IMG/VR virus record: IMGVR_UViG_3300012348_000120
DNA from: a virus
Lineage: Duplodnaviria; Heunggongvirae; Uroviricota; Caudoviricetes
DNA length: 64,000 nt
Reading direction: 5' to 3' (one strand)
Shown: in pieces, positions 1-30,519 of the stretch
Position numbering within the stretch: the stretch's first letter is position 1
Layout of the letters: every line of letters starts with the position of its first letter
Translations under genes and position numbers: made by a program
Notes under the pieces: model-generated
Seen by the model: the letters and a program-made list of their open reading frames with translations, nothing else
Told to the model about the DNA's origin: nothing
Databases searched by the model: none

Positions 1-144
1 TCCAAGTTCCCCGTCAAGAGGTAAAAACCATTTACATCCACAACTACAGTCTGGATAATCTTGATTGTCAGCCCATCGCTTTACTTCACCACCATAATCT
101 GTATAATCAGATGGAAGGACTTTTACAAACGACATATCAATCAT
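1..144 (-). CDS. hypothetical Cys-rich protein; start (ATG at 144) lies in the window, 3' end truncated at the window edge
   Basis: minus-strand frame open from the ATG at 144 to position 1 (MIDMSFVKVLPSDYTDYGGEVKRWADNQDYPDCSCGCKW...); not in the ORF track because it is under 60 aa. Confidence 0.4.
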   Translation of the reverse strand, partial: MIDMSFVKVLPSDYTDYGGEVKRWADNQDYPDCSCGCKWFLPLDGELG

Positions 145-162
145 ATTCAGACCTTTTTATTT

Positions 163-238
163 TGGTAGTCCCCCTCGGACTTGAACCGAGATATCCGTTC
201 TTATGAGGAACGCTCATTCACCAATTATGATAAAGGAC
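163..238 (-). tRNA. tRNA with CAU anticodon (Met or lysidine-Ile), CCA encoded
   Basis: reverse complement folds as a cloverleaf with acceptor stem GTCCTTT/AGGGGAC-type pairing, anticodon stem CGTTC/GAACG, loop CTCATAA, T-loop GGTTCAAGTCC, 3' CCA. Confidence 0.7.
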
Positions 239-354
239 CGTAATTCTGATCGGTTTGTCGCAGACACCGAAAAACTGCTTTCAGCAACCTAGACGCAGAG
301 CATCATCCCTGTAGGACCATTGTCCCGCAACCGCCATCGTGTTACTGTCTAAAA

Positions 355-437
355 TGGTGTCCCCTGTCGGACTCGAACCGACACTCCTAAGAAGGAGATT
401 TTAAGTCTCCCGCGCCTACCAATTACGCCAAGGGGAC
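355..437 (-). tRNA. tRNA-Leu (UAA anticodon), class II with long variable arm, CCA encoded
   Basis: reverse complement: 7-bp acceptor GTCCCCT/AGGGGAC, anticodon stem GGAGA/TCTCC, loop CTTAAAA, T-loop GGTTCGAGTCC, 83 nt. Confidence 0.65.
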
Positions 438-557
438 GTTTATTTCGTTTCCGACACCAGCCCCCATACCCGCCGTGTCAGTGATTACTTCCATATCCCA
501 AAGAGAACAAGAAAGGAGAAAAGTTCTCAACGGTTTATTAAGTATCTTTCCTAAGAT

Positions 558-634
558 TGGCGATTCCGACAGGACTCGAACCTGTAACCCACAGCTTAGA
601 AGGCTGTTGCTCTATCCAGTTGAGCTACGGAACC
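558..634 (-). tRNA. tRNA-Arg (UCU anticodon), CCA encoded
   Basis: reverse complement: acceptor GGTTCCG/CGGAATC (one G-U pair), anticodon stem ACAGC/GCTGT, loop CTTCTAA, T-loop GGTTCGAGTCC. Confidence 0.7.
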
Positions 635-855
635 ATTATGTAGGTATTTATCAAATGGCTTTCAGTTCAGCACGAGACACGCCGTTGTGTCCACGAATGG
701 CATGAAAGAAAGACAAGGCGGCGGCACGAGTATCAAACACTTTTTCACCAGCATGACGACCATAGCGGCTCCAAACGACTTTGAACATTTCGTTCATCCC
801 TCTCTTGATTACTTTCTTACTATAGCTGATTCGCGTTAGATTGTCAAGTGTGTTT

Positions 856-1191
856 TCAGAGTTTGATGCCGAGAACTTCAAGTTCTTCTGCGGTGAGTTT
901 ACCCAAAGCAACTTTGCGAAGTTCTTCCTTACGCTTTTCAGCAGCTTCACGAGCACGGCGCTTTTCATCTTTCTCTTTGTGCTTCTTCCACCAAAGACCA
1001 AGAGTGCGGCGTTTCACGCCAGCTTCTTCCCAATCAACCAAGTCAAGAACCTTGTTCAGTTCGTCTACACCGAGTTTGGTTTCAAGTGCAGTCAACATAC
1101 CGCACATCGATGCTTCAAGCATATTGTGTTCAGCAACATCATCGCGGCTCACGCGAACTTCATCACTCCAACCACCATCACTGCAAGGCAT
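856..1191 (-). CDS. hypothetical protein with basic Lys/Arg-rich C-terminus
   Basis: ORF with AGGAGA RBS before the ATG at 1191; 3' end overlaps a hairpin. Confidence 0.5.
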   Translation of the reverse strand: MPCSDGGWSDEVRVSRDDVAEHNMLEASMCGMLTALETKLGVDELNKVLDLVDWEEAGVKRRTLGLWWKKHKEKDEKRRAREAAEKRKEELRKVALGKLTAEELEVLGIKL

Positions 1192-1226
1192 TTTGTATCT
1201 CCTTATGTTTCAGAAGTAGGGTTGGT

Positions 1227-1530
1227 TCAGGCAGCAGCCTGAACCTTATTCACCATCATTGCAGGAACTTTCCAGTTCGTAGTCACATTGTTCAGAGCCT
1301 TCTGAGAAACAATCAGGTTCTTGCGATTGACTTTTGTGACAACACCACGAATGGTCATACCACGAGCAACAAATTCAACTTGGTCACCAACAACAACCGA
1401 GCGAACATTTTGGTTGGTAATGAAGGTGCGTTGAAGTTTGATGCGTTCAGCAATGCGAACGATTTGGTCAAAGTCGGCTTTACCGATTAGAGCAAGAACG
1501 GTGTCCATTTCAGTGGCGGTGAGTTTCATT
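1227..1530 (-). CDS. hypothetical protein (start trimmed to MKLTATEM)
   Basis: ATG follows the conserved leader aagagaggaaatcaaaATG; the upstream part of the track ORF is the translated promoter. Confidence 0.55.
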
Positions 1531-1548
1531 TTGATTTCCTCTCTTTTG

Positions 1549-1590
1549 CTTACAGGATATGTATATCGTGATTCGTTCAGAATGTCAAGC
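1549..1590 (-). promoter_or_regulatory. early sigma70-type promoter plus conserved leader (copy)
   Basis: gene-sense TTGACA-ttctgaacgaatcac-gaTATACA-tatcctgtaagc then RBS. Confidence 0.6.
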
Positions 1591-1782
1591 AGATTCTTCA
1601 ACGTAAAAGTTATGAGTTTCTTTTACGAATTGAGAAAGCCAAGCATCAACCATATCAATGTATGATTTATACTTTGCAACTGGGATTGCGCCATTCAATC
1701 CAGTGTAAGGATCATAGGTGACGCCTTTGGTTTCATACACAACGTAGATGGGATTTTCTAACAACTCAGTTTTCATCATCAC
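1585..1782 (-). CDS. hypothetical protein (start trimmed to MMKTELLENP)
   Basis: RBS agggaag before ATGATG; promoter cassette immediately upstream. Confidence 0.5.
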   Translation of the reverse strand: MMMKTELLENPIYVVYETKGVTYDPYTGLNGAIPVAKYKSYIDMVDAWLSQFVKETHNFYVEESA

Positions 1783-1790
1783 TTCCCTAT

Positions 1791-1833
1791 TGGTTACATT
1801 GTATGTATATAGTGATTCGTTCAGATAGTCAAG
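1791..1833 (-). promoter_or_regulatory. early promoter plus conserved leader (copy)
   Basis: gene-sense TTGACT-atctgaacgaatcac-TATATA-catacaatgtaacc. Confidence 0.6.
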
Positions 1834-2230
1834 TGAAAACCATAGGAAGAATTGCCATAAACATAGCAAAAATCCCACCAGCAACGACTTTCATCATATA
1901 ATTACTGGACTTCAAATCGCGAACTTGTCGTTGCAATGAATAATTTTTGCTCATCAGACTGCGATGTTCAGTTGACAGATTGTCATACATGTATTTCAAT
2001 GTCTGCAAGTCAGCAGAGTTTGCGTTTTGCTTATGATAGTTGTAATAAGCCAGTGCCTTCTCATACCAATACTTCGCGGTATGGCCATTGTAAGTAACTT
2101 CTTCAACCTTGGTGTCAAAGGATTGAGTTACTTTTCCACCTTTTTTTCGTGCCATACGCAGACAAGCAATCGCTTCATCTTCTGAAGTTGTGCTCATAGC
2201 CTTGGCGATAAGTTGGTTAGTTGTGCTCAT
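1829..2230 (-). CDS. hypothetical protein with C-terminal transmembrane helix
   Basis: 133-aa ORF; hydrophobic C-terminus VVAGGIFAMFMAILPMVF. Confidence 0.5.
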   Translation of the reverse strand: MSTTNQLIAKAMSTTSEDEAIACLRMARKKGGKVTQSFDTKVEEVTYNGHTAKYWYEKALAYYNYHKQNANSADLQTLKYMYDNLSTEHRSLMSKNYSLQRQVRDLKSSNYMMKVVAGGIFAMFMAILPMVFT

Positions 2231-2478
2231 TTTACTTCCACTTCACGATATTGAACTTCAAGCCATTCATATGCAGAAATAGCATCATTAGGAATCCAGC
2301 GACCTTTGACAAACTCATGCTCACGACCATGGTTAGGTAAGTCAGCGTAAGCCTCTTCGGCTGTTGGCCAACGATCAAGAACTACCGCGCTGTTTGGATA
2401 GTTACAACCATATTGGTCAACTTGTTGAATAACAACTTGCCATTCACACTGAATTGTTTTTGTCCTGAAGTTTTTCAT
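2227..2478 (-). CDS. hypothetical protein
   Basis: 83-aa ORF; ATGA overlap with the upstream gene. Confidence 0.5.
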   Translation of the reverse strand: MKNFRTKTIQCEWQVVIQQVDQYGCNYPNSAVVLDRWPTAEEAYADLPNHGREHEFVKGRWIPNDAISAYEWLEVQYREVEVK

Positions 2479-2646
2479 CAGTAATCCCGCTCAGTTTCAA
2501 ACATCACGCCAAAGACAAACATCAGGGCAAGCCCTGGAATAGCAAGGGCAGCAGCAACCCATAGGGAAACTCCTTCATCAATGCAACCAGCGGCAATCAC
2601 CATCAAAAGACCAATCATAACCATCACAGTGCGAAACCAAGCCATT
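2478..2646 (-). CDS. small hydrophobic membrane protein (about 56 aa)
   Basis: not in the ORF track; RBS cagaaaggaaaataca then ATG; two predicted TM helices; stop overlaps the next ATG. Confidence 0.45.
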
Positions 2647-2662
2647 GTATTTTCCTTTCTGA

Positions 2663-2929
2663 TTAGGTGCGAACCGAAATGGTTGAACCATCTTTGAATT
2701 TCATATAGAAGCCATCATAGTAGTCAGCATCACCATGATCTTTTTCAAACTTGCCATATTCTTCTTCAAGGGCATCATATGCAATCACGGGAACAGACGT
2801 ATGAAACAGCTTGGCATCACGAGGATCAAACTTGACAAACTGTGCAAGGTGAGCGATGGTGGTTGACGTATCACCTTCTGCGGGATTGATCAGAAGCCGA
2901 GAACCGAAATGAGAAGCGAGAGTTTTCAT
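2663..2929 (-). CDS. hypothetical protein (start trimmed to MKTLASHFGS)
   Basis: ATG after a conserved-leader-like RBS; the track ORF runs through the promoter. Confidence 0.5.
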   Translation of the reverse strand: MKTLASHFGSRLLINPAEGDTSTTIAHLAQFVKFDPRDAKLFHTSVPVIAYDALEEEYGKFEKDHGDADYYDGFYMKFKDGSTISVRT

Positions 2930-2946
2930 GGTTGTCTCCTTGTTTG

Positions 2947-2986
2947 CTACAGGATATGTATATAGTGATTCGTAGTTCTTGTCAAG
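2947..2986 (-). promoter_or_regulatory. early promoter plus leader (copy)
   Basis: gene-sense TTGACA-agaactacgaatcac-TATATA-catatcctgtagc. Confidence 0.6.
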
Positions 2987-3194
2987 CCACATTCGGCTCA
3001 AGACGGAAAAACCACGAGTTTTTGTTTTCGGAAAACTTCGCAAGCACACGCTCACCGCAATGACGATAAGTGTTCATCAAACGAAGGCAAGCGAGTTCGG
3101 AACCAAAGGCATATAGCGTTCCACCAATTTCTTCAACCTCAAGATTTTCTTTTGCATGGATTTCAAACTCACGCTTGGCACGGAAAAGGTTCAT
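2982..3194 (-). CDS. hypothetical protein
   Basis: ATG preceded by cctgtaaccaagagagaggaaaccag. Confidence 0.5.
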   Translation of the reverse strand: MNLFRAKREFEIHAKENLEVEEIGGTLYAFGSELACLRLMNTYRHCGERVLAKFSENKNSWFFRLEPNVA

Positions 3195-3210
3195 CTGGTT
3201 TCCTCTCTCT

Positions 3211-3252
3211 TGGTTACAGATTACTTATATAGTGATTCGTATGGAATGTCAA
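3211..3252 (-). promoter_or_regulatory. early promoter plus leader (copy)
   Basis: gene-sense TTGACA-ttccatacgaatcac-TATATAagtaatctgtaacc. Confidence 0.6.
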
Positions 3253-3262
3253 TAGAAAAAAC

Positions 3263-4513
3263 TCAAGCGGCGGCAACCGCTTGAGTCCGAGCACGTTTCA
3301 TGCCTTCTTTGATCTTTTCAACTTTCTTTTCACCATTCGGGAAAACATCGTTGAACTTCACACTCTTGAACGCTTCCCACTTAGTCAGCAGAACATCCAG
3401 TTGATCAACAGGATTGTTTTCACTACCCAGACGACCACGCTCATCGCACATACCAACCCGATGCAGAACATTCACAGTCTCAGGATCATTCAGCGAACCC
3501 ATTTCATCAAACATTTTGACGAAAGTTTTAGCAGTCAGTTCATCCAGCTTGTGCATATTCATGTGAAACCGAGTAGCTTTCATAGCACGGTCACGCATCT
3601 TAGCAGGAACAGTCAGCCGATCAGCAAAGGCTTCAACAACGGGAACACCTTTCACGTCATGACCGAAGTGCTTCGGAAAGTCTTCTTTACGAGTCAGACC
3701 TTTACCAAAGTCATGAACCAGTGCAGCAAACCGAGTTTCCAGATCAAACCCAAACTTGGCAGCTTGAGTCAGAACCAGCATGGTATGCTCAAAGGCATTA
3801 CCTTCGGGATGCCAACGACGACTTTCCATTGCAGAACACAGGGCATACACTTCAGGAAACAGAACATGCAGAGCATCACATTCCAGCAGCGTATCAAAGA
3901 ACAGACGAGGATGGGGTTCCATCAGAGCACGGCTCAGTTCTTTCCACACACGTTCAGCAGTCAGTTCGTTCAGAACACCCTTCTTGGCCATCATGTGAAC
4001 CAGTTCACGAGTTTCCTTGGCAACAGTCCATTCCGCACCAAAACGAGCGCGAAACCGAGCCAGCCGCAGAACACGAACAGGGTCTTCAACAAAAGCATCA
4101 GAAGTATGACGCAGCACTTTCGCTTGCAGATCGTCTTGACCACCAAAGGGATCAAACAGAGCAAAACGACCTTCGTCACCTTCAACAAAGAACTCAGTGT
4201 CTTCCATCCGTTGCAGAGACATACTGTTGATGGTCAGGTCACGACGAGACAGGTCTTCTTCCAGCGTCACATCAGTGCCGAACTCAGAAGTGAAACCCAG
4301 ATACCCAGTGCCAGTCTTTTTTTCACGACGAGCCAGAGCAAATTCTTCACCAGTTTCGGGGTGCAGAAACACAGGAAAATCAGCGCCAACTTTTTCAAAG
4401 CCAGCAGCCAGCATTTCTTCGACCGTGGAACCAACCACCACGAAATCTTTATCTTTCGGCTCCATGCCCATCAGCATATCGCGAACAGCACCGCCGACCA
4501 GAAACGTTTGCAT
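3263..4513 (-). CDS. cca: CCA-adding tRNA nucleotidyltransferase with HD domain
   Basis: N-terminal PolB-type NTase (GGAVRD...DxD) plus HD-domain residues along 417 aa; start trimmed to MQTFLVGG after RBS aaggaa. Confidence 0.85.
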   Translation of the reverse strand: MQTFLVGGAVRDMLMGMEPKDKDFVVVGSTVEEMLAAGFEKVGADFPVFLHPETGEEFALARREKKTGTGYLGFTSEFGTDVTLEEDLSRRDLTINSMSLQRMEDTEFFVEGDEGRFALFDPFGGQDDLQAKVLRHTSDAFVEDPVRVLRLARFRARFGAEWTVAKETRELVHMMAKKGVLNELTAERVWKELSRALMEPHPRLFFDTLLECDALHVLFPEVYALCSAMESRRWHPEGNAFEHTMLVLTQAAKFGFDLETRFAALVHDFGKGLTRKEDFPKHFGHDVKGVPVVEAFADRLTVPAKMRDRAMKATRFHMNMHKLDELTAKTFVKMFDEMGSLNDPETVNVLHRVGMCDERGRLGSENNPVDQLDVLLTKWEAFKSVKFNDVFPNGEKKVEKIKEGMKRARTQAVAAA

Positions 4514-4532: not shown

Positions 4533-4570
4533 ACTGTTATACCATACAGTATGATTCTTTCTTTGTCAAA
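4533..4570 (-). promoter_or_regulatory. sigma70-type promoter for cca (variant: TTGACA-N17-TATGGTATAAC)
   Basis: gene-sense TTGACAaagaaagaatcatactgTATGGTATAAC. Confidence 0.5.
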
Positions 4571-4601
4571 TAAAAAAGAGGGTTTCCCCTCTTTATTTTT
4601 G
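4571..4601 (-). terminator. intrinsic terminator hairpin (GAGGG-tttc-CCCTC flanked by A/T runs)
   Basis: aaaaaagagggtttcccctctttattttt, symmetric, downstream of CDS 4593..4787. Confidence 0.6.
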
Positions 4602-8414: not shown

Positions 8415-8615
8415 TCAGCCAGCAATATCCTTAATTCGTTTTGCTTCTTCGCCTCTTTTCTCAACTGTTTTACCAGCGATAAGAAGGACCAATCCTACCA
8501 ATACGGGAGAAAGAATAAAGGCGGCGATGCCCCAACCCCAACCATTTCTACCCCAAGAGTTTGCCCAATATCCTACACCGAATGAGAATATCAGAAGAAA
8601 AATTAAAACTTCCAT
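8415..8615 (-). CDS. small membrane protein (two TM helices)
   Basis: 66-aa hydrophobic ORF. Confidence 0.5.
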   Translation of the reverse strand: MEVLIFLLIFSFGVGYWANSWGRNGWGWGIAAFILSPVLVGLVLLIAGKTVEKRGEEAKRIKDIAG

Positions 8616-11201: not shown

Positions 11202-11744
11202 TTATGCGAAAATTTTCAATATTTCGAGTTCTATATAATCTTTGTTTCGTTCAATATAAGCAACATCACCGATGGAACATCCTAATAGTTCTTTTCCAAC
11301 TGGTGATTTATGACTTATAACGCCCTCAGATGGATTACTTTCCATCTCTCCAAGGATTGTGTATGTTATAATTTTGTCAGTTGATAAGTTTTTCACAGTC
11401 ACACTAAGCCCAACTTCGACCTTACTATATTCCCCCTTTTTTTTCGCTGGTATGATAGTATATGTTTCTGCTACGATTTGGAGTTTTGCAATCTCCATAT
11501 CTAATCTCATCATTTCTTCCAGCGCCATAGAGAATTCTTCATTTTCTTCTATGCCGCCGTTTTCTCTGGCATCTTTAAGTTGCTCAGAAATTAGTGGTTT
11601 CTTTTTGGAAAGGATTTGAATCTTTTCCAAAATTTGTTTTCTTCCCTGTTCGGTAATAATGTCCCCACTCACTTCGTAGTATTCCTTGTTATTATTGTTG
11701 TGGTTATATTTATCGAAAACCACAAATGAAAGAGCATTATTCAC
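11202..11744 (-). CDS. GreA/GreB-family transcript-cleavage-factor-like protein
   Basis: coiled-coil N-domain with acidic tip plus C-terminal FKBP-like domain (VEVGLSVTVKNLSTDKIITYTILGE...SPVGKELLGCSIGDV). Confidence 0.65.
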   Translation of the reverse strand: MNNALSFVVFDKYNHNNNNKEYYEVSGDIITEQGRKQILEKIQILSKKKPLISEQLKDARENGGIEENEEFSMALEEMMRLDMEIAKLQIVAETYTIIPAKKKGEYSKVEVGLSVTVKNLSTDKIITYTILGEMESNPSEGVISHKSPVGKELLGCSIGDVAYIERNKDYIELEILKIFA

Positions 11745-12009
11745 TTTGCGTAACCTTATCGTTTATAATAGAGAAAACTTCAAACAAGTTGTCATCAATA
11801 TCATTTAGGTAATTGATGTGTGATTGAAATAGCATACTCAGTAAAATCATATTTTCTGCGGTCTGAATGTCATACGCATTATATTTGTATTTCATAAGTA
11901 TGGTTATAATGGATTTCATCAACTCTAATGACTCTATTTCATCTGTGCGAGTTGAAATAGAGTCATCTTTCTTGGAACGATAGTCTTCCAAATTTATTAT
12001 ATTACTCAT
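11737..12009 (-). CDS. hypothetical protein
   Basis: 90-aa ORF; ATGA coupling. Confidence 0.5.
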   Translation of the reverse strand: MSNIINLEDYRSKKDDSISTRTDEIESLELMKSIITILMKYKYNAYDIQTAENMILLSMLFQSHINYLNDIDDNLFEVFSIINDKVTQSE

Positions 12010-12545
12010 CGGATAGACAAACCTAATGTAGCAATAGCATCTTGGACAGACTTCGCTTGAAACTTCGCATCCTGCAACGGATCATGTTTCAAAAATGTGT
12101 ATTTCTTCCTTGGGTCATCTGGAAGAATACCAAACAATGTGGCACTATCTTTGATTCCCCAATAAGGCCAAGGAACGGGCGAGTCATATTGCTTGCACAT
12201 ATTCTGAACAATGCCAATATCCATCAGAATGCGTTGTGACCATACTGTGTCACAGCCAACATACCACTTCTTCAAGTGGCGTAGCATTTCTTGTGGTGAT
12301 ACACGATTGTCTGGCGAGAATGCCATTTCAATCGCATCTTTGTCCTGAGTAGACCACCAATCCAGCGTCTCAGTGCTTACGGTTCTACCAGTGCTTTCCT
12401 GACAGTCAATATCAACCCGAAAGAAAAACTCATCAAACGGGTCTTCTTTTGTATTCGGATTGAATTTTACTCCACCGATGGATAGAACCTGTGCGGTTGG
12501 AGACACGTCAAGTGTCTCCAAATCAATCATTGCATGTATTGTCAT
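12006..12545 (-). CDS. dexA: DnaQ-like 3'-5' exonuclease (T4 DexA-like)
   Basis: Exo I motif IDLETLD at the N-terminus, 179 aa. Confidence 0.7.
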   Translation of the reverse strand: MTIHAMIDLETLDVSPTAQVLSIGGVKFNPNTKEDPFDEFFFRVDIDCQESTGRTVSTETLDWWSTQDKDAIEMAFSPDNRVSPQEMLRHLKKWYVGCDTVWSQRILMDIGIVQNMCKQYDSPVPWPYWGIKDSATLFGILPDDPRKKYTFLKHDPLQDAKFQAKSVQDAIATLGLSIR

Positions 12546-12559
12546 TATTTTTCCTGTAA

Positions 12560-13027
12560 TTAAATACCATACGTATCTAGCAATAACTGCCCAACACGTT
12601 TCATATCTACTTTCGCCCCAAATGCGAATCTTGCAGCTTGCATAAATTCACTTTTCTTTGGAGTTGTTTCTGGGGTTTTGTCTTTCATTATCGAATTTAA
12701 CAAATTCAAAATTTCTTCCTCAGATGCCATTTGTGGCAGAACACCAGAAAGAATATTCTTTTCAAAATTCAGGGCGACACGGCGACCATCATCAATATTC
12801 AGCTTTAAGTTTTCGTCAATAGTGACGATAAGTTTTTGAATAACCTTGATGGCTTCGTCTTCTGTGGTTTCACGGTTGCCGTTATTCTTGCCAACCTTTT
12901 CAATTTCGCTAAGTGCAAAAAGAATGGATGGCGCAATAGGACTGCGAGTTTTACGCAGTGCGATGGATTCAGCTTTTAGTTTTTCAATAACACTCATTTT
13001 CTTTTCCTTAGCTACATAGTCCTGCAA
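12560..13027 (-). CDS. GatB/YqeY-domain protein
   Basis: C-terminal segment ILSGVLPQMASEEEILNLLNSI...KSEFMQAARFAFGAKVDMKRVGQLL resembles YqeY. Confidence 0.55.
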   Translation of the reverse strand: MQDYVAKEKKMSVIEKLKAESIALRKTRSPIAPSILFALSEIEKVGKNNGNRETTEDEAIKVIQKLIVTIDENLKLNIDDGRRVALNFEKNILSGVLPQMASEEEILNLLNSIMKDKTPETTPKKSEFMQAARFAFGAKVDMKRVGQLLLDTYGI

Positions 13028-25820: not shown

Positions 25821-26870
25821 TCAGTCCCCGCCTTTCAGAAGGAACTGATTGCTGATCGTCTTGAAACTGAAACTTGGGTCTTCGTTGCATTTCCACACAA
25901 GACCCTCGCGAACCTTGTGAACGATGCTTGGACCTTCAGCAAGAGCAAGACCTTCTTCCACATTACGTGGCGCTGGCATTGCCGTTCCGAACACTGGAAC
26001 GTGTTCCAGTTTCAATTGTTTACATACTTCCCGCCGTGCTGTGGGACCAACGTATAGATGGCTGAACATATTGAACACGTCAAACACAAAGAACTGATGT
26101 TCTTTGAACCCTTCACGGTTTCCCTGAATGCCCGGACCCATAAATTCACCTTGGAAAGCAAACCCATCGGGAATGCTGTCACCAATCTTGAGGGCCATAG
26201 CAACAAGAGTATTGTCTTTGTTTTCTTCGTTGATTTTCAGTTCAAGGTTCCGACTGCAAACACGAAGTTCACCTTCCCAACGGAAGATAGTGCAACTGGT
26301 TCCATCCAGTTTCATTGTTACTTCGTAAGTAACATCACCTTTGTCCTGAATCTCTTGGAAACAGTTCTGAATGCGTTCCTGATCAGTTTTAGGAATCAGG
26401 CTGGTGGGAAACAGACCACGAACTTGACCAGCAAGTTGAGCAGGGATTTCTGGTTCCCACTTTTGGATGTTGAGAGCATCAGTTACGTCATCGTCCAGTG
26501 AAACTTGTCGATGGAACCCAATCCCATCTTCATGCTTGAAAGCCAGAATACATGGGAACTTGTCGCGGTCACCGTGCCATTCTACAGGAAGCAGTAGCCC
26601 CTGAGAAACTTGACCACGCAGTTTGACTGTCCGAAGACGTTCACCTTTCACCCCATTGTATTCACGGGGTTCTTGTCCTTTTGACAGGAACGCAGCAAGT
26701 TCAGTTGGCACCCAAGAGTCAATTTCAAGGTAAACGGCAAGGTCACCAACTTGAAACTCGTCTTTCTTGACCACAACTTTCCAGCCATCAACTGTGGCCA
26801 CGACAATAGCATCAGCACCTTCAATGGGCTGAATGTCGGAAATCCGACGAATAGAGGCAAGTTTACGCAT
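25821..26870 (-). CDS. ATP-dependent RNA ligase, DraRnl/Rnl5-like (N-terminal OB-like domain plus nucleotidyltransferase domain)
   Basis: motif I KLDGTS (Lys about 187), motif III FQGEFMGPG, motif IV EGLVWK, motif V SFKTISNQFLLK; start trimmed to MRKLASIRR after gggagaaaaaata. Confidence 0.8.
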   Translation of the reverse strand: MRKLASIRRISDIQPIEGADAIVVATVDGWKVVVKKDEFQVGDLAVYLEIDSWVPTELAAFLSKGQEPREYNGVKGERLRTVKLRGQVSQGLLLPVEWHGDRDKFPCILAFKHEDGIGFHRQVSLDDDVTDALNIQKWEPEIPAQLAGQVRGLFPTSLIPKTDQERIQNCFQEIQDKGDVTYEVTMKLDGTSCTIFRWEGELRVCSRNLELKINEENKDNTLVAMALKIGDSIPDGFAFQGEFMGPGIQGNREGFKEHQFFVFDVFNMFSHLYVGPTARREVCKQLKLEHVPVFGTAMPAPRNVEEGLALAEGPSIVHKVREGLVWKCNEDPSFSFKTISNQFLLKGGD

Positions 26871-27229
26871 TATTTTTTCTCCCGAATAAAGGCAGTGAGT
26901 GGAGTTCCGTATCCACATTGTAAGTCCGAATGAAGATTTCCACCGTTGATGGAATCGTTTAGATAGTCACTTTCAGTATAGCCATACCGATCAATACCAT
27001 CGCCAATCCCAACGTATTCACCGTCAGCATCAAAGGCAGAGTATCCGTAACTGTCAAAACCTTCGCTGTCGTAGTCGCCAAACATGGTTTTTTCATCATA
27101 TTCGATTCCATCCTCATACACTTCTTGATTCCAATCGGCAGGAACTTCGCCATAGCAGTTGTATTTGAACATTTCCCATCCGCTTTCATTCGCGTGTGGG
27201 CATAGCGGCGAATATTTTCCAGTGCTCAT
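26870..27229 (-). CDS. acidic Tyr/Gly/Asp-rich protein
   Basis: 119-aa ORF. Confidence 0.45.
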   Translation of the reverse strand: MSTGKYSPLCPHANESGWEMFKYNCYGEVPADWNQEVYEDGIEYDEKTMFGDYDSEGFDSYGYSAFDADGEYVGIGDGIDRYGYTESDYLNDSINGGNLHSDLQCGYGTPLTAFIREKK

Positions 27230-27483: not shown

Positions 27484-27525
27484 GGTTACAGATTATGTAT
27501 ACAGTGATTCGTATGAAATGTCAAG
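27484..27525 (-). promoter_or_regulatory. early promoter plus leader (copy)
   Basis: gene-sense TTGACAtttcatacgaatcacTGTATAcataatctgtaacc. Confidence 0.6.
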
Positions 27526-29561: not shown

Positions 29562-29837
29562 TTACTCCATTGTGAACAACATCATTGCCTTATCTGTATC
29601 AGATAATGTGCAGTATGTCAACCATTCTTTGAAGGACATATCACATCCTTCGATATAAAACAAGGAAACCCCACGCCGAATAATTGCAGGACCATTCGTG
29701 TTATGGAGTTTCCCATTTTTTAGAAACATCGTTCCCTGTGATAAATCCACTCGTTTCGTCTCACCTTCGGTTACAAAAATAATCCGACTCGCGATGTATT
29801 GATCAATAGTCTTTGATGTATTCTTAGCCTTTGCCAT
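29562..29837 (-). CDS. MORN-repeat-like protein
   Basis: NGKLHNTNGPAII motif; paralogous to CDS 7421..7735. Confidence 0.45.
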   Translation of the reverse strand: MAKAKNTSKTIDQYIASRIIFVTEGETKRVDLSQGTMFLKNGKLHNTNGPAIIRRGVSLFYIEGCDMSFKEWLTYCTLSDTDKAMMLFTME

Positions 29838-30519
29838 AGATACTCTCGTGTGTCACTTCCAGATCATCCAAATCCACGTCTACATAATCAAGTTCTCCAA
29901 GACACATAAACGTGGTGTTTCCATACTTGTGACGCATGGTGTGGTGCCAGTGGCCAAAAAACCAAAAGTCAGGTTGATGAATATCAAGCATTGCATCAAA
30001 CGCTTGGGCAGTTCTGGTTTTGTATTCAGCCCCTTTGATAATCCCAGTATTGAAAAACATTTCTCGTGAGATACGTTGAGGGCAATCATGAGTAATCATA
30101 ATACGAGGTTTTGCAAAAGAATACAGTTCAATAAAACGATAGAACTGTTCATCAGAACATTGCTCATCTGCCCACCAATCCACATCCTCTGTGCGACGAT
30201 ACCAACCTGGTGCACCATCTGGACCGTCAATACTCCAAGCACCACCGATGAACATTGTTTCATTTTCAACCGTGCCATCTGGAATGTATCCGACCATTTC
30301 AGACCTACACATTGAAGGCTTGTCATGGTTTCCACGAATGAAGCGATGAGTGCCATCAGAATGAAATGAGTTTACACTTTCAACCCAGTAGTCACTTTGA
30401 CCAAACCCAATGCCAAAATCTCCGACCTGAATAGTAGGACCACCAAAGTTTCCAATAGAGTATGCTTTGTAGTCATTCACCATACCATGAATGTCACCAA
30501 TCAAACGAGTGAGTGTCAT
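29824..30519 (-). CDS. calcineurin-like metallophosphoesterase
   Basis: GDIHG, GDFG...GNHD, GHWHH motifs. Confidence 0.75.
   Translation of the reverse strand: MTLTRLIGDIHGMVNDYKAYSIGNFGGPTIQVGDFGIGFGQSDYWVESVNSFHSDGTHRFIRGNHDKPSMCRSEMVGYIPDGTVENETMFIGGAWSIDGPDGAPGWYRRTEDVDWWADEQCSDEQFYRFIELYSFAKPRIMITHDCPQRISREMFFNTGIIKGAEYKTRTAQAFDAMLDIHQPDFWFFGHWHHTMRHKYGNTTFMCLGELDYVDVDLDDLEVTHESIYGKG

Follow-up and report, generated by a model that had tools for sequence, protein, structure and literature searches.

A probable translation-support island with a CCA-adding enzyme, recurrent promoter cassettes, and a candidate structured RNA in an uncultured large phage

The 64,000-nucleotide (nt) stretch of viral DNA considered here, referred to as the window, comes from the IMG/VR record IMGVR_UViG_3300012348_000120, and its first 4.6 kb contain three tRNA genes, a series of small open reading frames (ORFs), and cca, the gene for a CCA-adding tRNA nucleotidyltransferase. 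This locus is probably the promoter-proximal edge of a translation-support island carried by an uncultured large phage related to T4. Confidence in this explanation is good, if short of high, and it refers to the explanation as a whole, in which the island, its promoters, the role of the enzyme, and an RNA encoded in one of the spacers between the tRNAs are taken together. All coordinates are those of the window, and L-numbers (L004, L025, L026, etc.) designate related contigs. The minus strand carries every gene of the window (G+C content 40.6%), and transcription runs from 4.6 kb toward position 1, with cca read first and the tRNAs last. The gene identities, layout, repeat statistics, synteny, conservation, and covariation described below were established directly from these sequences.

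Extent and Relatives of the Island

The initial annotation described the three tRNA genes as a tRNA island. All three tRNAs are genuine, but the island is incomplete in the window, where it is cut by the left edge, and its continuation is found on two related contigs. The first of these, L026, was found through the 111-amino acid (aa) protein encoded at 859–1191; it is 100% identical to window positions 1–1824 and runs 4.8 kb beyond the left edge. The second, L025, is 98.5% identical. Past the left edge, and in the same direction, lie an 83-aa ORF, the gene for a 197-aa short form of TilS that corresponds to the N-domain (TilS_N), and at least 12 more tRNAs. In L025, 15 tRNAs are called by ARAGORN, 13 of which reach the gathering score of the Rfam tRNA model (29 bits), and a partial tRNA match is present at the end of the contig. 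By comparison, the ARAGORN calls for the 64,000 nt of the window number exactly three, each on the minus strand. A CCA is encoded in every island tRNA. The island is truncated by the left edge of the window, and the three tRNAs of the window are the first of many.

The kinship with T4 is apparent from relatives whose Cca proteins are 71–79% identical, as these encode UvsW, UvsY, a gp19-like tube protein, and rIIB. The nearest related contigs measure 203 kb and 351 kb. The lineage is plentiful in metagenomes and is without a cultured member.

The initial observation is largely real, though incomplete, and its components are of known kinds and ordinary for a large T4-like phage; the RNA proposed for one spacer (240–354) is the one modestly new item. 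Why large phages bring their own translation parts is debated, with codon supply on one side and escape from tRNA-targeting defenses on the other, and this locus unites tRNAs for A-ending codons, what is probably a dedicated enzyme for an AUA-reading tRNA, a likely 3′-end repair enzyme, and a conserved RNA. Its value is incremental, as no kind of component is new, and lies in testable hypotheses on the substrate of the short TilS, the repair role of the CCA enzyme, and the stability of the spacer RNA. What weighs against the explanation as a whole is that the transcription starts, the timing of expression, the polymerase used, the processing steps, the formation of lysidine, the repair role, and the stability of the spacer RNA are inferred.

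Several other features are found in the island beyond the left edge. A class-I S-adenosylmethionine (SAM) methyltransferase (236 aa) and an ornithine/arginine/diaminopimelate (DAP) decarboxylase (375 aa) are encoded between tRNA genes (L026 3529–5505; L025 5166–7142). A conserved 97-nt tRNA-like element (L025 4667–4763) possesses an acceptor stem, a T-arm, and CCA, and is unsupported by the Rfam tRNA model. Several spacers (L025 7600–8570 and 8812–8900) contain GGTTCGAATCC T-arm motifs, one of which is then followed by an acceptor strand and CCA (8537–8568). Two further non-canonical elements of this part of L025 are tRNAs, one of type II whose anticodon is GCA (Cys) and a Ser-like one whose anticodon is ACU. 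A weak match to YrlA (Y RNA-like; 26.7 bits) is located at L025 7876–7993.

tRNA Genes and Identity of the CAU tRNA

The three tRNAs had been reported with the anticodons CAU, UAA, and UCU and with encoded CCA ends, and these assignments stand in both ARAGORN and Rfam, with scores well above 29 bits (Table 1). In the genes of the window, AUA accounts for 17% of Ile codons, AGA for 17% of Arg codons, and UUA for 8% of Leu codons, and the tRNAs would supply decoding of these A-ending codons. Host RNase P, together with 3′ processing enzymes of the host, would excise the tRNAs from precursors that combine mRNA and tRNA, a route of tRNA release that is established for T4.

The CAU tRNA is probably tRNA-Ile2, which is modified with lysidine and reads AUA, rather than tRNA-Met. 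The reasons for this reading are the TilS_N gene downstream of it in L026, whose sequence is identical to the left end of the window, and the recurrence of this pairing in relatives. The 197-aa TilS_N product is a PP-loop protein that possesses the SGGxDS motif and scores 103.9 bits with TIGR02432 (cut-off 93.6), and its gene, at 1913–2506 of L026, is located ~270 nt downstream of the CAU tRNA in L026, L025, and L004. The pairing is also retained in L029, L046, and L048–50, and it is found in four differing local arrangements, once with the two genes only 16 nt apart. The phage TilS would convert C34 of the CAU tRNA to lysidine and thereby direct the tRNA to AUA. A point that tempers this assignment is that TilS_N, which is encoded beyond the edge of the window, is the catalytic N-domain alone, and the tRNA would have to be selected without the other domains.

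ARAGORN labels the CAU tRNA as a plain methionine tRNA, a reading that is quite unlikely. An unmodified CAU anticodon does decode AUG, and similar tRNAs in two Aeromonas phages are annotated as tRNA-Met. The persistence of the pairing with TilS_N through rearranged neighborhoods argues against the methionine assignment, as does the company of tRNAs that read AGA and UUA, which belong to the same A-ending class as AUA. In addition, the island has a second CAU tRNA (L025 8396–8473) that could serve Met. Automatic tools are known to call every CAU tRNA Met. The C4-G69 and C5-G68 pairs, which we take to be determinants for E. coli TilS, are present in the sequence of the CAU tRNA. Typing of this tRNA by similarity was uninformative, as there was no match in E. 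coli genomes and the only two phage matches were both automatically labeled Met.

A short TilS is rare in sequenced phages, where it is found in the PA5oct/MIJ3 group and in two megaphages, and abundant in metagenomes (1,699 proteins at E ≤ 1e-10). The TilS proteins of the Pseudomonas jumbo phages PA5oct and MIJ3 (PMC6892783) are similar to the one described here in that they are ~200 aa in length, contain only the TilS N-domain, and are 44% identical to it. In contrast to the present island, where tilS directly follows the CAU tRNA, the annotation of PA5oct places no tRNA in the 4 kb that flank tilS on each side, and the idea that TilS adjoins a tRNA in that phage was rejected. Cca and TilS_N are encoded within 1.6–8 kb of each other in the more distant relatives L031, L034, and L042.

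The tRNA slots themselves vary among relatives. In the UAA slot, the place of the 83-nt type-II Leu tRNA is taken by either of two unrelated tRNAs of 77 nt, in which the variable arm is short and the anticodon is the same (L004 10642–10718; L035 14819–14895; L038 15072–15148). The CAU slot is likewise occupied by two unrelated tRNA bodies, and the alleles of the two slots are combined mosaically among genomes around the conserved spacer at 240–354.

CCA-Adding Enzyme

A full-length CCA-adding enzyme with an HD domain had been predicted about 2.5 kb from the tRNAs, and both the assignment and the distance are borne out: cca is located 2,628 nt upstream of tRNA-Arg, and its product contains the PolyA_pol head, PolyA_pol_RNAbd, and HD domains of Pfam (HD E = 1.4e-7). 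The protein aligns over residues 1–415 with the NCBIfam equivalog NF008137 (multifunctional CCA addition/repair protein), with a score of 481.6 bits (cut-off 451). The class-II head motifs align with those of the Aquifex enzyme and are invariant in 17 homologues that share 68–93% identity (GGAVRD, D21/D23, R90-R91-D92, D121/G125/D128, E143-D-P-V-R147, and R188/W190-K-E192), as are the HD residues H235, H267-D268, H282, and H285. On the basis of these models and motifs, the product is assigned as a class-II CCA-adding enzyme of the E. coli multifunctional Cca type.

It is very improbable that the nucleotidyltransferase is instead a poly(A) polymerase or an enzyme that adds only CC or only A. 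Of the solved structures, the one that matches best is that of the Aquifex A-adding enzyme, deposited as a "poly A polymerase", and head motifs alone cannot separate the members of the class-II family. However, the end-to-end alignment with the E. coli-type equivalog exceeds its cut-off, while the models of the sister families remain far below theirs (79 and 55 bits vs 306 and 702 for PcnB; 65 vs 1440 bits for the A-adding enzyme), and the HD domain is typical of Cca.

The enzyme shares its three-domain architecture and intact class-II and HD motifs with E. coli Cca and with the homologues of other large phages. It differs from these in its sequence, as each of the 431 phage records that hold a Cca homologue is at most 45% identical; in its membership in a large clade known only from metagenomes (>120 clusters at 67–93% identity); and in its repeated linkage to a short TilS.

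Every island tRNA encodes CCA, and the enzyme is therefore not needed for their maturation. Most likely, the enzyme acts in the repair of 3′ ends rather than in the maturation of tRNAs. In such a role, Cca would rebuild 3′ ends that have been damaged or nibbled, and the phosphoesterase activity of the HD domain could clear 2′,3′-cyclic or 3′-phosphate ends. The combined repair of 3′ ends would keep host and phage tRNAs chargeable during infection.

A more specific proposal is that Cca serves mainly in counter-defense, restoring tRNA 3′ ends that are attacked by the nucleases of defense systems or toxins or by end-modifying toxins, with the HD domain first removing 2′,3′-cyclic or 3′-phosphate groups. 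This proposal is considered somewhat unlikely. The encoded CCA ends, which set maturation aside as the role, are consistent with it, as is the invariance of the HD catalytic residues across the clade. Furthermore, a jumbo-phage review counts Cca among RNA-repair genes and links these to the RNase effectors of the host (PMC7824862), and a DRB0094-family RNA ligase (25821–26918, minus strand; TIGR02306, 182.9 bits; phrog_968) and a calcineurin-like metallophosphoesterase (29824–30519, minus strand) are likewise encoded in the window. On the other hand, the ligase is located 21 kb away and is unlinked to cca in relatives, no defense system or target has been identified, and the same repair is performed by E. 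coli Cca as a housekeeping function. The two roles are not mutually exclusive. The ligase, the metallophosphoesterase, and Cca could form an RNA-repair toolkit, though they are not adjacent.

The cca gene is predicted to be a self-contained transcription unit, with a promoter of its own and terminators on both sides (Table 1).

Promoter-Leader Cassettes

The genes between cca and the tRNAs had been described as small early genes that are each preceded by the same promoter-leader cassette. The recurrence of the cassette is real. The region contains a 66-nt repeat family whose core, ACGAATCACTATATA, matches 12 times in the window with at most two mismatches, where 0.06 matches are expected, and an nhmmer profile identifies 15 strong copies, all on the minus strand. 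The claim that each gene is preceded by a copy does not hold, as only five of the nine small ORFs in the gap have one (TTGAC at 3252, 2985, 1832, and 1588, and a diverged copy at 847), and the remaining four, which are tightly packed, lack individual promoters. Of the 15 copies, nine are located elsewhere in the window and are clustered at 59.7–64 kb.

In each cassette, TTGAC(A/T) is separated by 17 nt, which include GAATC at –21 to –17, from TATAnn; a conserved GTA at the expected start, a leader of ~20 nt, a Shine-Dalgarno sequence, and ATG follow. TTGAC(A/T) with the 17-nt spacer is found in 15/15 copies and TATA at –12 to –9 in 13/15, while the promoter, the Shine-Dalgarno sequence, and ATG are present in all copies, with the ATG 53–61 nt after TTGAC in most of them. 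Compared with the closest relative, L004, in which third codon positions differ by 18.8%, the cassettes are 94–98.5% identical, except for the copy at 1832 (77%). Gene gains and losses occur at cassette borders; in L004, two extra genes are inserted exactly upstream of the equivalent of the promoter at 847 (P847).

The cassette is not specific to this region, and these properties suggest that it belongs to a genome-wide class of predicted early promoters of the kind known in T4-type phages as promoter-early stem-loop cassettes (PeSLs). PeSLs consist of a sigma-70-like promoter, a Shine-Dalgarno sequence, a start codon, and often a stem-loop, and are found in hyperplastic regions, where they mediate gene shuffling (PMC2839356; PMC4122927). 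The cassettes resemble the PeSLs described by Arbiol et al. 2010 (PMC2839356) and Comeau et al. 2014 (PMC4122927) in being a repeated composite motif, in which a TTGACA-N17-TAnnnn promoter is combined with a Shine-Dalgarno sequence, a start codon, and an optional stem-loop; in their concentration among small, mostly uncharacterized ORFs; and in the gain and loss of genes at their borders. In contrast to PeSLs, a clear upstream stem-loop is found with only two of the 15 copies in the window, in terminator-then-promoter modules at 3288/3252 and 4594/4569; in four copies the –35 element overlaps the upstream stop codon; GAATC is present in the spacer throughout the lineage; and the –10 element is mostly TATACA or TATAAG.

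Early in infection, the cassettes would be transcribed by the sigma-70 form of the host RNA polymerase. P847 likely drives the transcription of a 48-aa ORF and the three tRNAs, and no terminator-like site was found between this promoter and the tRNAs; none precedes the next ORF either.

Two features speak against recognition of the cassettes by the host polymerase alone. First, the last position of the –10 hexamer is T in only four of the 15 copies and differs in the other 11 (TATACA in eight, TATAAG in three), while T occupies this position in 49 of 62 sites in farther relatives. Second, the GAATC of the spacer (e.g., 1588, 3252, 27524, and 63638) is strongly conserved and is not a sigma-70 element. 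Even in distant relatives (L005, L031, L032, L034, and L042), GAATC is found at the same position in about one-third of TTGACA-N17-TA sites. Given these features, the cassette may be something other than a plain sigma-70 early promoter and may depend on a phage factor (an activator, a repressor, or a sigma appropriator) or on the modification state of the DNA, which would define a separately regulated group of genes. The conservation of the cassettes where third codon positions differ by 19% is in keeping with such dependence, as is a second promoter subclass, in which the inverse GATTC directly follows the –10 hexamer (TATACTGATTCTATAAGG). Nevertheless, a factor-dependent promoter is judged unlikely, as a perfect TTGAC(A/T) placed exactly 17 nt from TATAnn is the signature of sigma-70, the PeSLs of RB49 and phi1 are near-perfect sigma-70 promoters that are also conserved beyond the hexamers (PMC4122927), and no candidate factor has been identified. 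The sigma-70 assignment of the cassettes is preferred.

GAATC and GATTC may be sites of protein binding or modification. GAATC could presumably also be a GANTC methylation site under control of the CcrM/GcrA type, which we note as a lead. GANTC occurs in the window at 0.77 of expectation and is neither notably depleted nor enriched. A promoter for a T7-type single-subunit polymerase was considered as well, as ACGAATCACTATA agrees at 12 of 13 positions with the T7 sequence ACGACTCACTATA. On the evidence of the cassette sequences, this candidate was rejected because every copy has a perfect –35 element at 17 nt, the GGG at which transcription would initiate is missing, and only GAATC, and not CACTATA, is retained in farther relatives. 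In four copies, the upstream stop codon is the TGA within the TTGACA of the –35 element (1585–1588, 1829–1832, 2982–2985, and 27521–27524), and the intergenic region is exactly one cassette.

Spacers Between the tRNA Genes

The two spacers that separate the tRNAs were initially proposed to hold small stable RNAs like those of the T4 tRNA region. This proposal is upheld in part: the spacer between the UAA and CAU tRNAs (spacer 2, 240–354) behaves like a conserved structured RNA, but the spacer between the UCU and UAA tRNAs (spacer 1, 438–557) is lost or replaced in relatives, and neither resembles T4 rnaC or rnaD.

Spacer 2 is 84–96% identical in all six genomes that have the trio of tRNAs, even though the flanking tRNAs are swapped among these genomes (three UAA bodies and two CAU bodies). 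The proposed fold consists of an outer helix around two hairpins, followed by a 3′ hairpin. At the 27 proposed pairs, 97.5% of cells are paired and four pairs have compensatory changes, compared with 0–1 in slid controls. Among 500 shuffles, at most six reach the number of compensatory pairs and one or two reach the covariation score and the percentage paired; the number of further pair types is not exceptional relative to the shuffles. A covariance model built for spacer 2 finds one copy per genome and nothing elsewhere in the window, in farther relatives, or in the T4 region. Together, these results make spacer 2 a candidate for a lineage-specific RNA structure under selection, though the six related sequences are a thin basis.

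In the proposed mechanism, spacer 2 would be released during processing as a folded RNA of ~115 nt and would be a positional analogue of T4 species 1 and 2. The T4 tRNA cluster, with rnaC (species 1) and rnaD (species 2), offers the closest comparison, in that the phages are related, tRNA-Arg (UCU), tRNA-Leu (UAA), and a tRNA-Ile are among the tRNAs in mixed transcripts, and non-tRNA segments of ~115–140 nt lie between or beside the tRNAs, with T4 rnaD beginning 1 nt after tRNA-Arg. The two loci differ in that the spacers described here do not have the tRNA-like T-arm that can be read in the 3′ end of rnaC (GGGTTCGAATCCC), and in that the present island has at least 15 tRNAs, all with encoded CCA, and its own cca and tilS. 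Some T4 tRNAs need CCA to be added by the host. Local alignment reveals no sequence similarity between the spacers and T4 rnaC or rnaD (z –0.9 to 1.2). Rfam identifies no family in either spacer at E ≤ 1; this check could not address the T4 analogy because Rfam is without a model for rnaC and rnaD and does not match these RNAs themselves.

Three observations count against a released, functional RNA. The covariation comes from six closely related sequences. The folding energies of both spacers as single sequences are no better than those of shuffled sequences (z –0.2 to –1.2). Finally, spacer 2 is absent from farther relatives in which the Leu (UAA) and CAU tRNAs are 5 nt apart, and is thus not needed for tRNA function in general. 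The last two observations would also be expected if spacer 2 is not a free RNA and its fold is effective solely in cis, where, as part of the precursor, it would guide processing of the CAU tRNA or form its 5′ leader, or if spacer 2 serves as a homology anchor for recombination of tRNA alleles. This is a substantial possibility. Spacer 2 has no promoter or terminator of its own, and it is always located between the UAA and CAU slots while the tRNAs in those slots change. Conversely, the four compensatory changes, together with the 97.5% of cells that are paired, are a sign that selection acts on the structure of the RNA and not on DNA homology only, and non-tRNA segments of the T4 tRNA cluster can accumulate as stable RNAs, with rnaC and rnaD annotated as such.

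A bolder reading, which is advanced tentatively and regarded as fairly unlikely, is that the 115-nt element represents a new family of functional phage non-coding RNA that is stable, folded, and tied to the downstream tRNA-Ile2/TilS module, with the GAATC motif, as a second and independent possibility, marking a phage-specific control layered on sigma-70 promoters. If so, the RNA might control processing of, or read-through into, the tRNA(CAU)-orf83-tilS segment, or might act in trans on the translation apparatus.

Spacer 1 has a different history. It is present in the window, L025, L004, and L035, while 53 nt of unrelated sequence take its place in L029, as does a 199-aa ORF in L038. Its divergence is approximately neutral (12.7%, vs 18.8% at third codon positions). 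Spacer 1 is dispensable in relatives. A 35-aa ORF at 423–530 was rejected as a gene, as it extends into a tRNA and a 2-nt indel disrupts it in L004.

Two further attempts to place the spacers were unsuccessful. The idea that they are decayed tRNAs was rejected, as neither matches the tRNA model at E ≤ 1 and, unlike several later spacers of the island, neither has a T-loop motif. Searches of viral and metagenome collections for more relatives by exact pattern returned only one close contig; 17 matches to a 16-mer and three metagenome matches were in unrelated contexts and were attributed to chance.

Small ORFs and Neighboring Features

The features of the locus are listed in Table 1. The stretch between the tRNA transcript and cca is interpreted as hyperplastic, populated by putative early genes, and in L029, L035, and L038 this stretch contains other sets of genes. 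No Pfam match at cut-off and no functional assignment were obtained for the gap ORFs; two of them, of 111 and 70 aa, match uncharacterized PHROG families. The 48-aa ORF adjacent to tRNA-Arg is the predicted first cistron of the tRNA transcript. The 83-aa ORF at the left edge has a weak DUF3027-like Cys motif (Pfam DUF3027, 24.5 bits, slightly below the cut-off).

Table 1. Positions of the predicted features at the left end of the window.
Position	Strand	Feature	Basis or remark
1..145	–	N-terminal part of 83-aa ORF	Runs off left edge; overlaps start of 197-aa TilS_N gene in continuation
163..239	–	tRNA, CAU anticodon, encoded CCA	ARAGORN; Rfam 48.5 bits
240..354	–	Spacer 2, candidate structured non-coding RNA, 115 nt	Conservation and covariation
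355..437	–	tRNA-Leu (UAA), type II, long variable arm, encoded CCA	ARAGORN; Rfam 58.5 bits
438..557	–	Spacer 1, 120 nt, two predicted hairpins	
558..634	–	tRNA-Arg (UCU), reads AGA, encoded CCA	ARAGORN; Rfam 68.3 bits
651..797	–	48-aa ORF between P847 and tRNA-Arg	Relative to L004: 2, 0, and 6 changes at codon positions 1, 2, and 3
819..847	–	Predicted promoter P847 (TTGACA, 17 nt, TATAGT), diverged cassette copy	Repeat profile search
856..3194	–	Eight small ORFs (111, 100, 64, 133, 83, 55, 88, and 70 aa) with three full cassettes interspersed (TTGAC at 1588, 1832, 2985)	
3195..3252	–	Full cassette P3252 (TTGACA, 17 nt, TATAAG, leader GTAACC..., Shine-Dalgarno, ATG)	98.5% identical in L004
3259..3288	–	Predicted intrinsic terminator, 13-bp stem and T-run	Overlaps 3′ end of cca; directly upstream of P3252 (PeSL arrangement)
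3263..4513	–	cca, multifunctional CCA-adding/repair enzyme, 416 aa (class-II nucleotidyltransferase head, neck, HD)	Pfam, NCBIfam
4541..4569	–	Predicted promoter P4569 (TTGACA, 17 nt, TATGGT), diverged cassette copy before cca	Repeat profile search
4575..4594	–	Predicted terminator hairpin upstream of P4569	

A perfect 9-bp, G+C-rich hairpin (GGTTCAGGC-TGCT-GCCTGAACC) is located at 1199–1220 on the minus strand, in the 35-nt gap from the 100-aa ORF to the 111-aa ORF. It is not followed by a T-run and may be a processing or stabilizing site rather than a terminator.

Several short palindromes are strongly avoided in the window (1–64000), as GTAC occurs 2 times where 229 are expected, CTAG 9 times (229 expected), CCGG 6 times (107 expected), TTAA 50 times (492 expected), and CCWGG 17 times (64 expected), while GATC and GANTC are near expectation. 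This depletion resembles the avoidance of restriction sites in unmodified DNA.

Upstream of cca, the stretch at ~10.6–14.5 kb of the window corresponds by synteny to a region of L029 and L038 in which precomputed Pfam matches identify genes related to RNA and to nucleotide metabolism, namely those for a GreA/GreB-like factor, a YqeY-domain protein, an Rv2179c-like 3′-5′ exoribonuclease, an IMPDH-like dehydrogenase, a cytidylyltransferase-like protein, and glutaredoxin. ORFs of corresponding size are present in the window (e.g., 11202–11744, 12006–12545, and 12560–13027), with the assignment made by synteny only.

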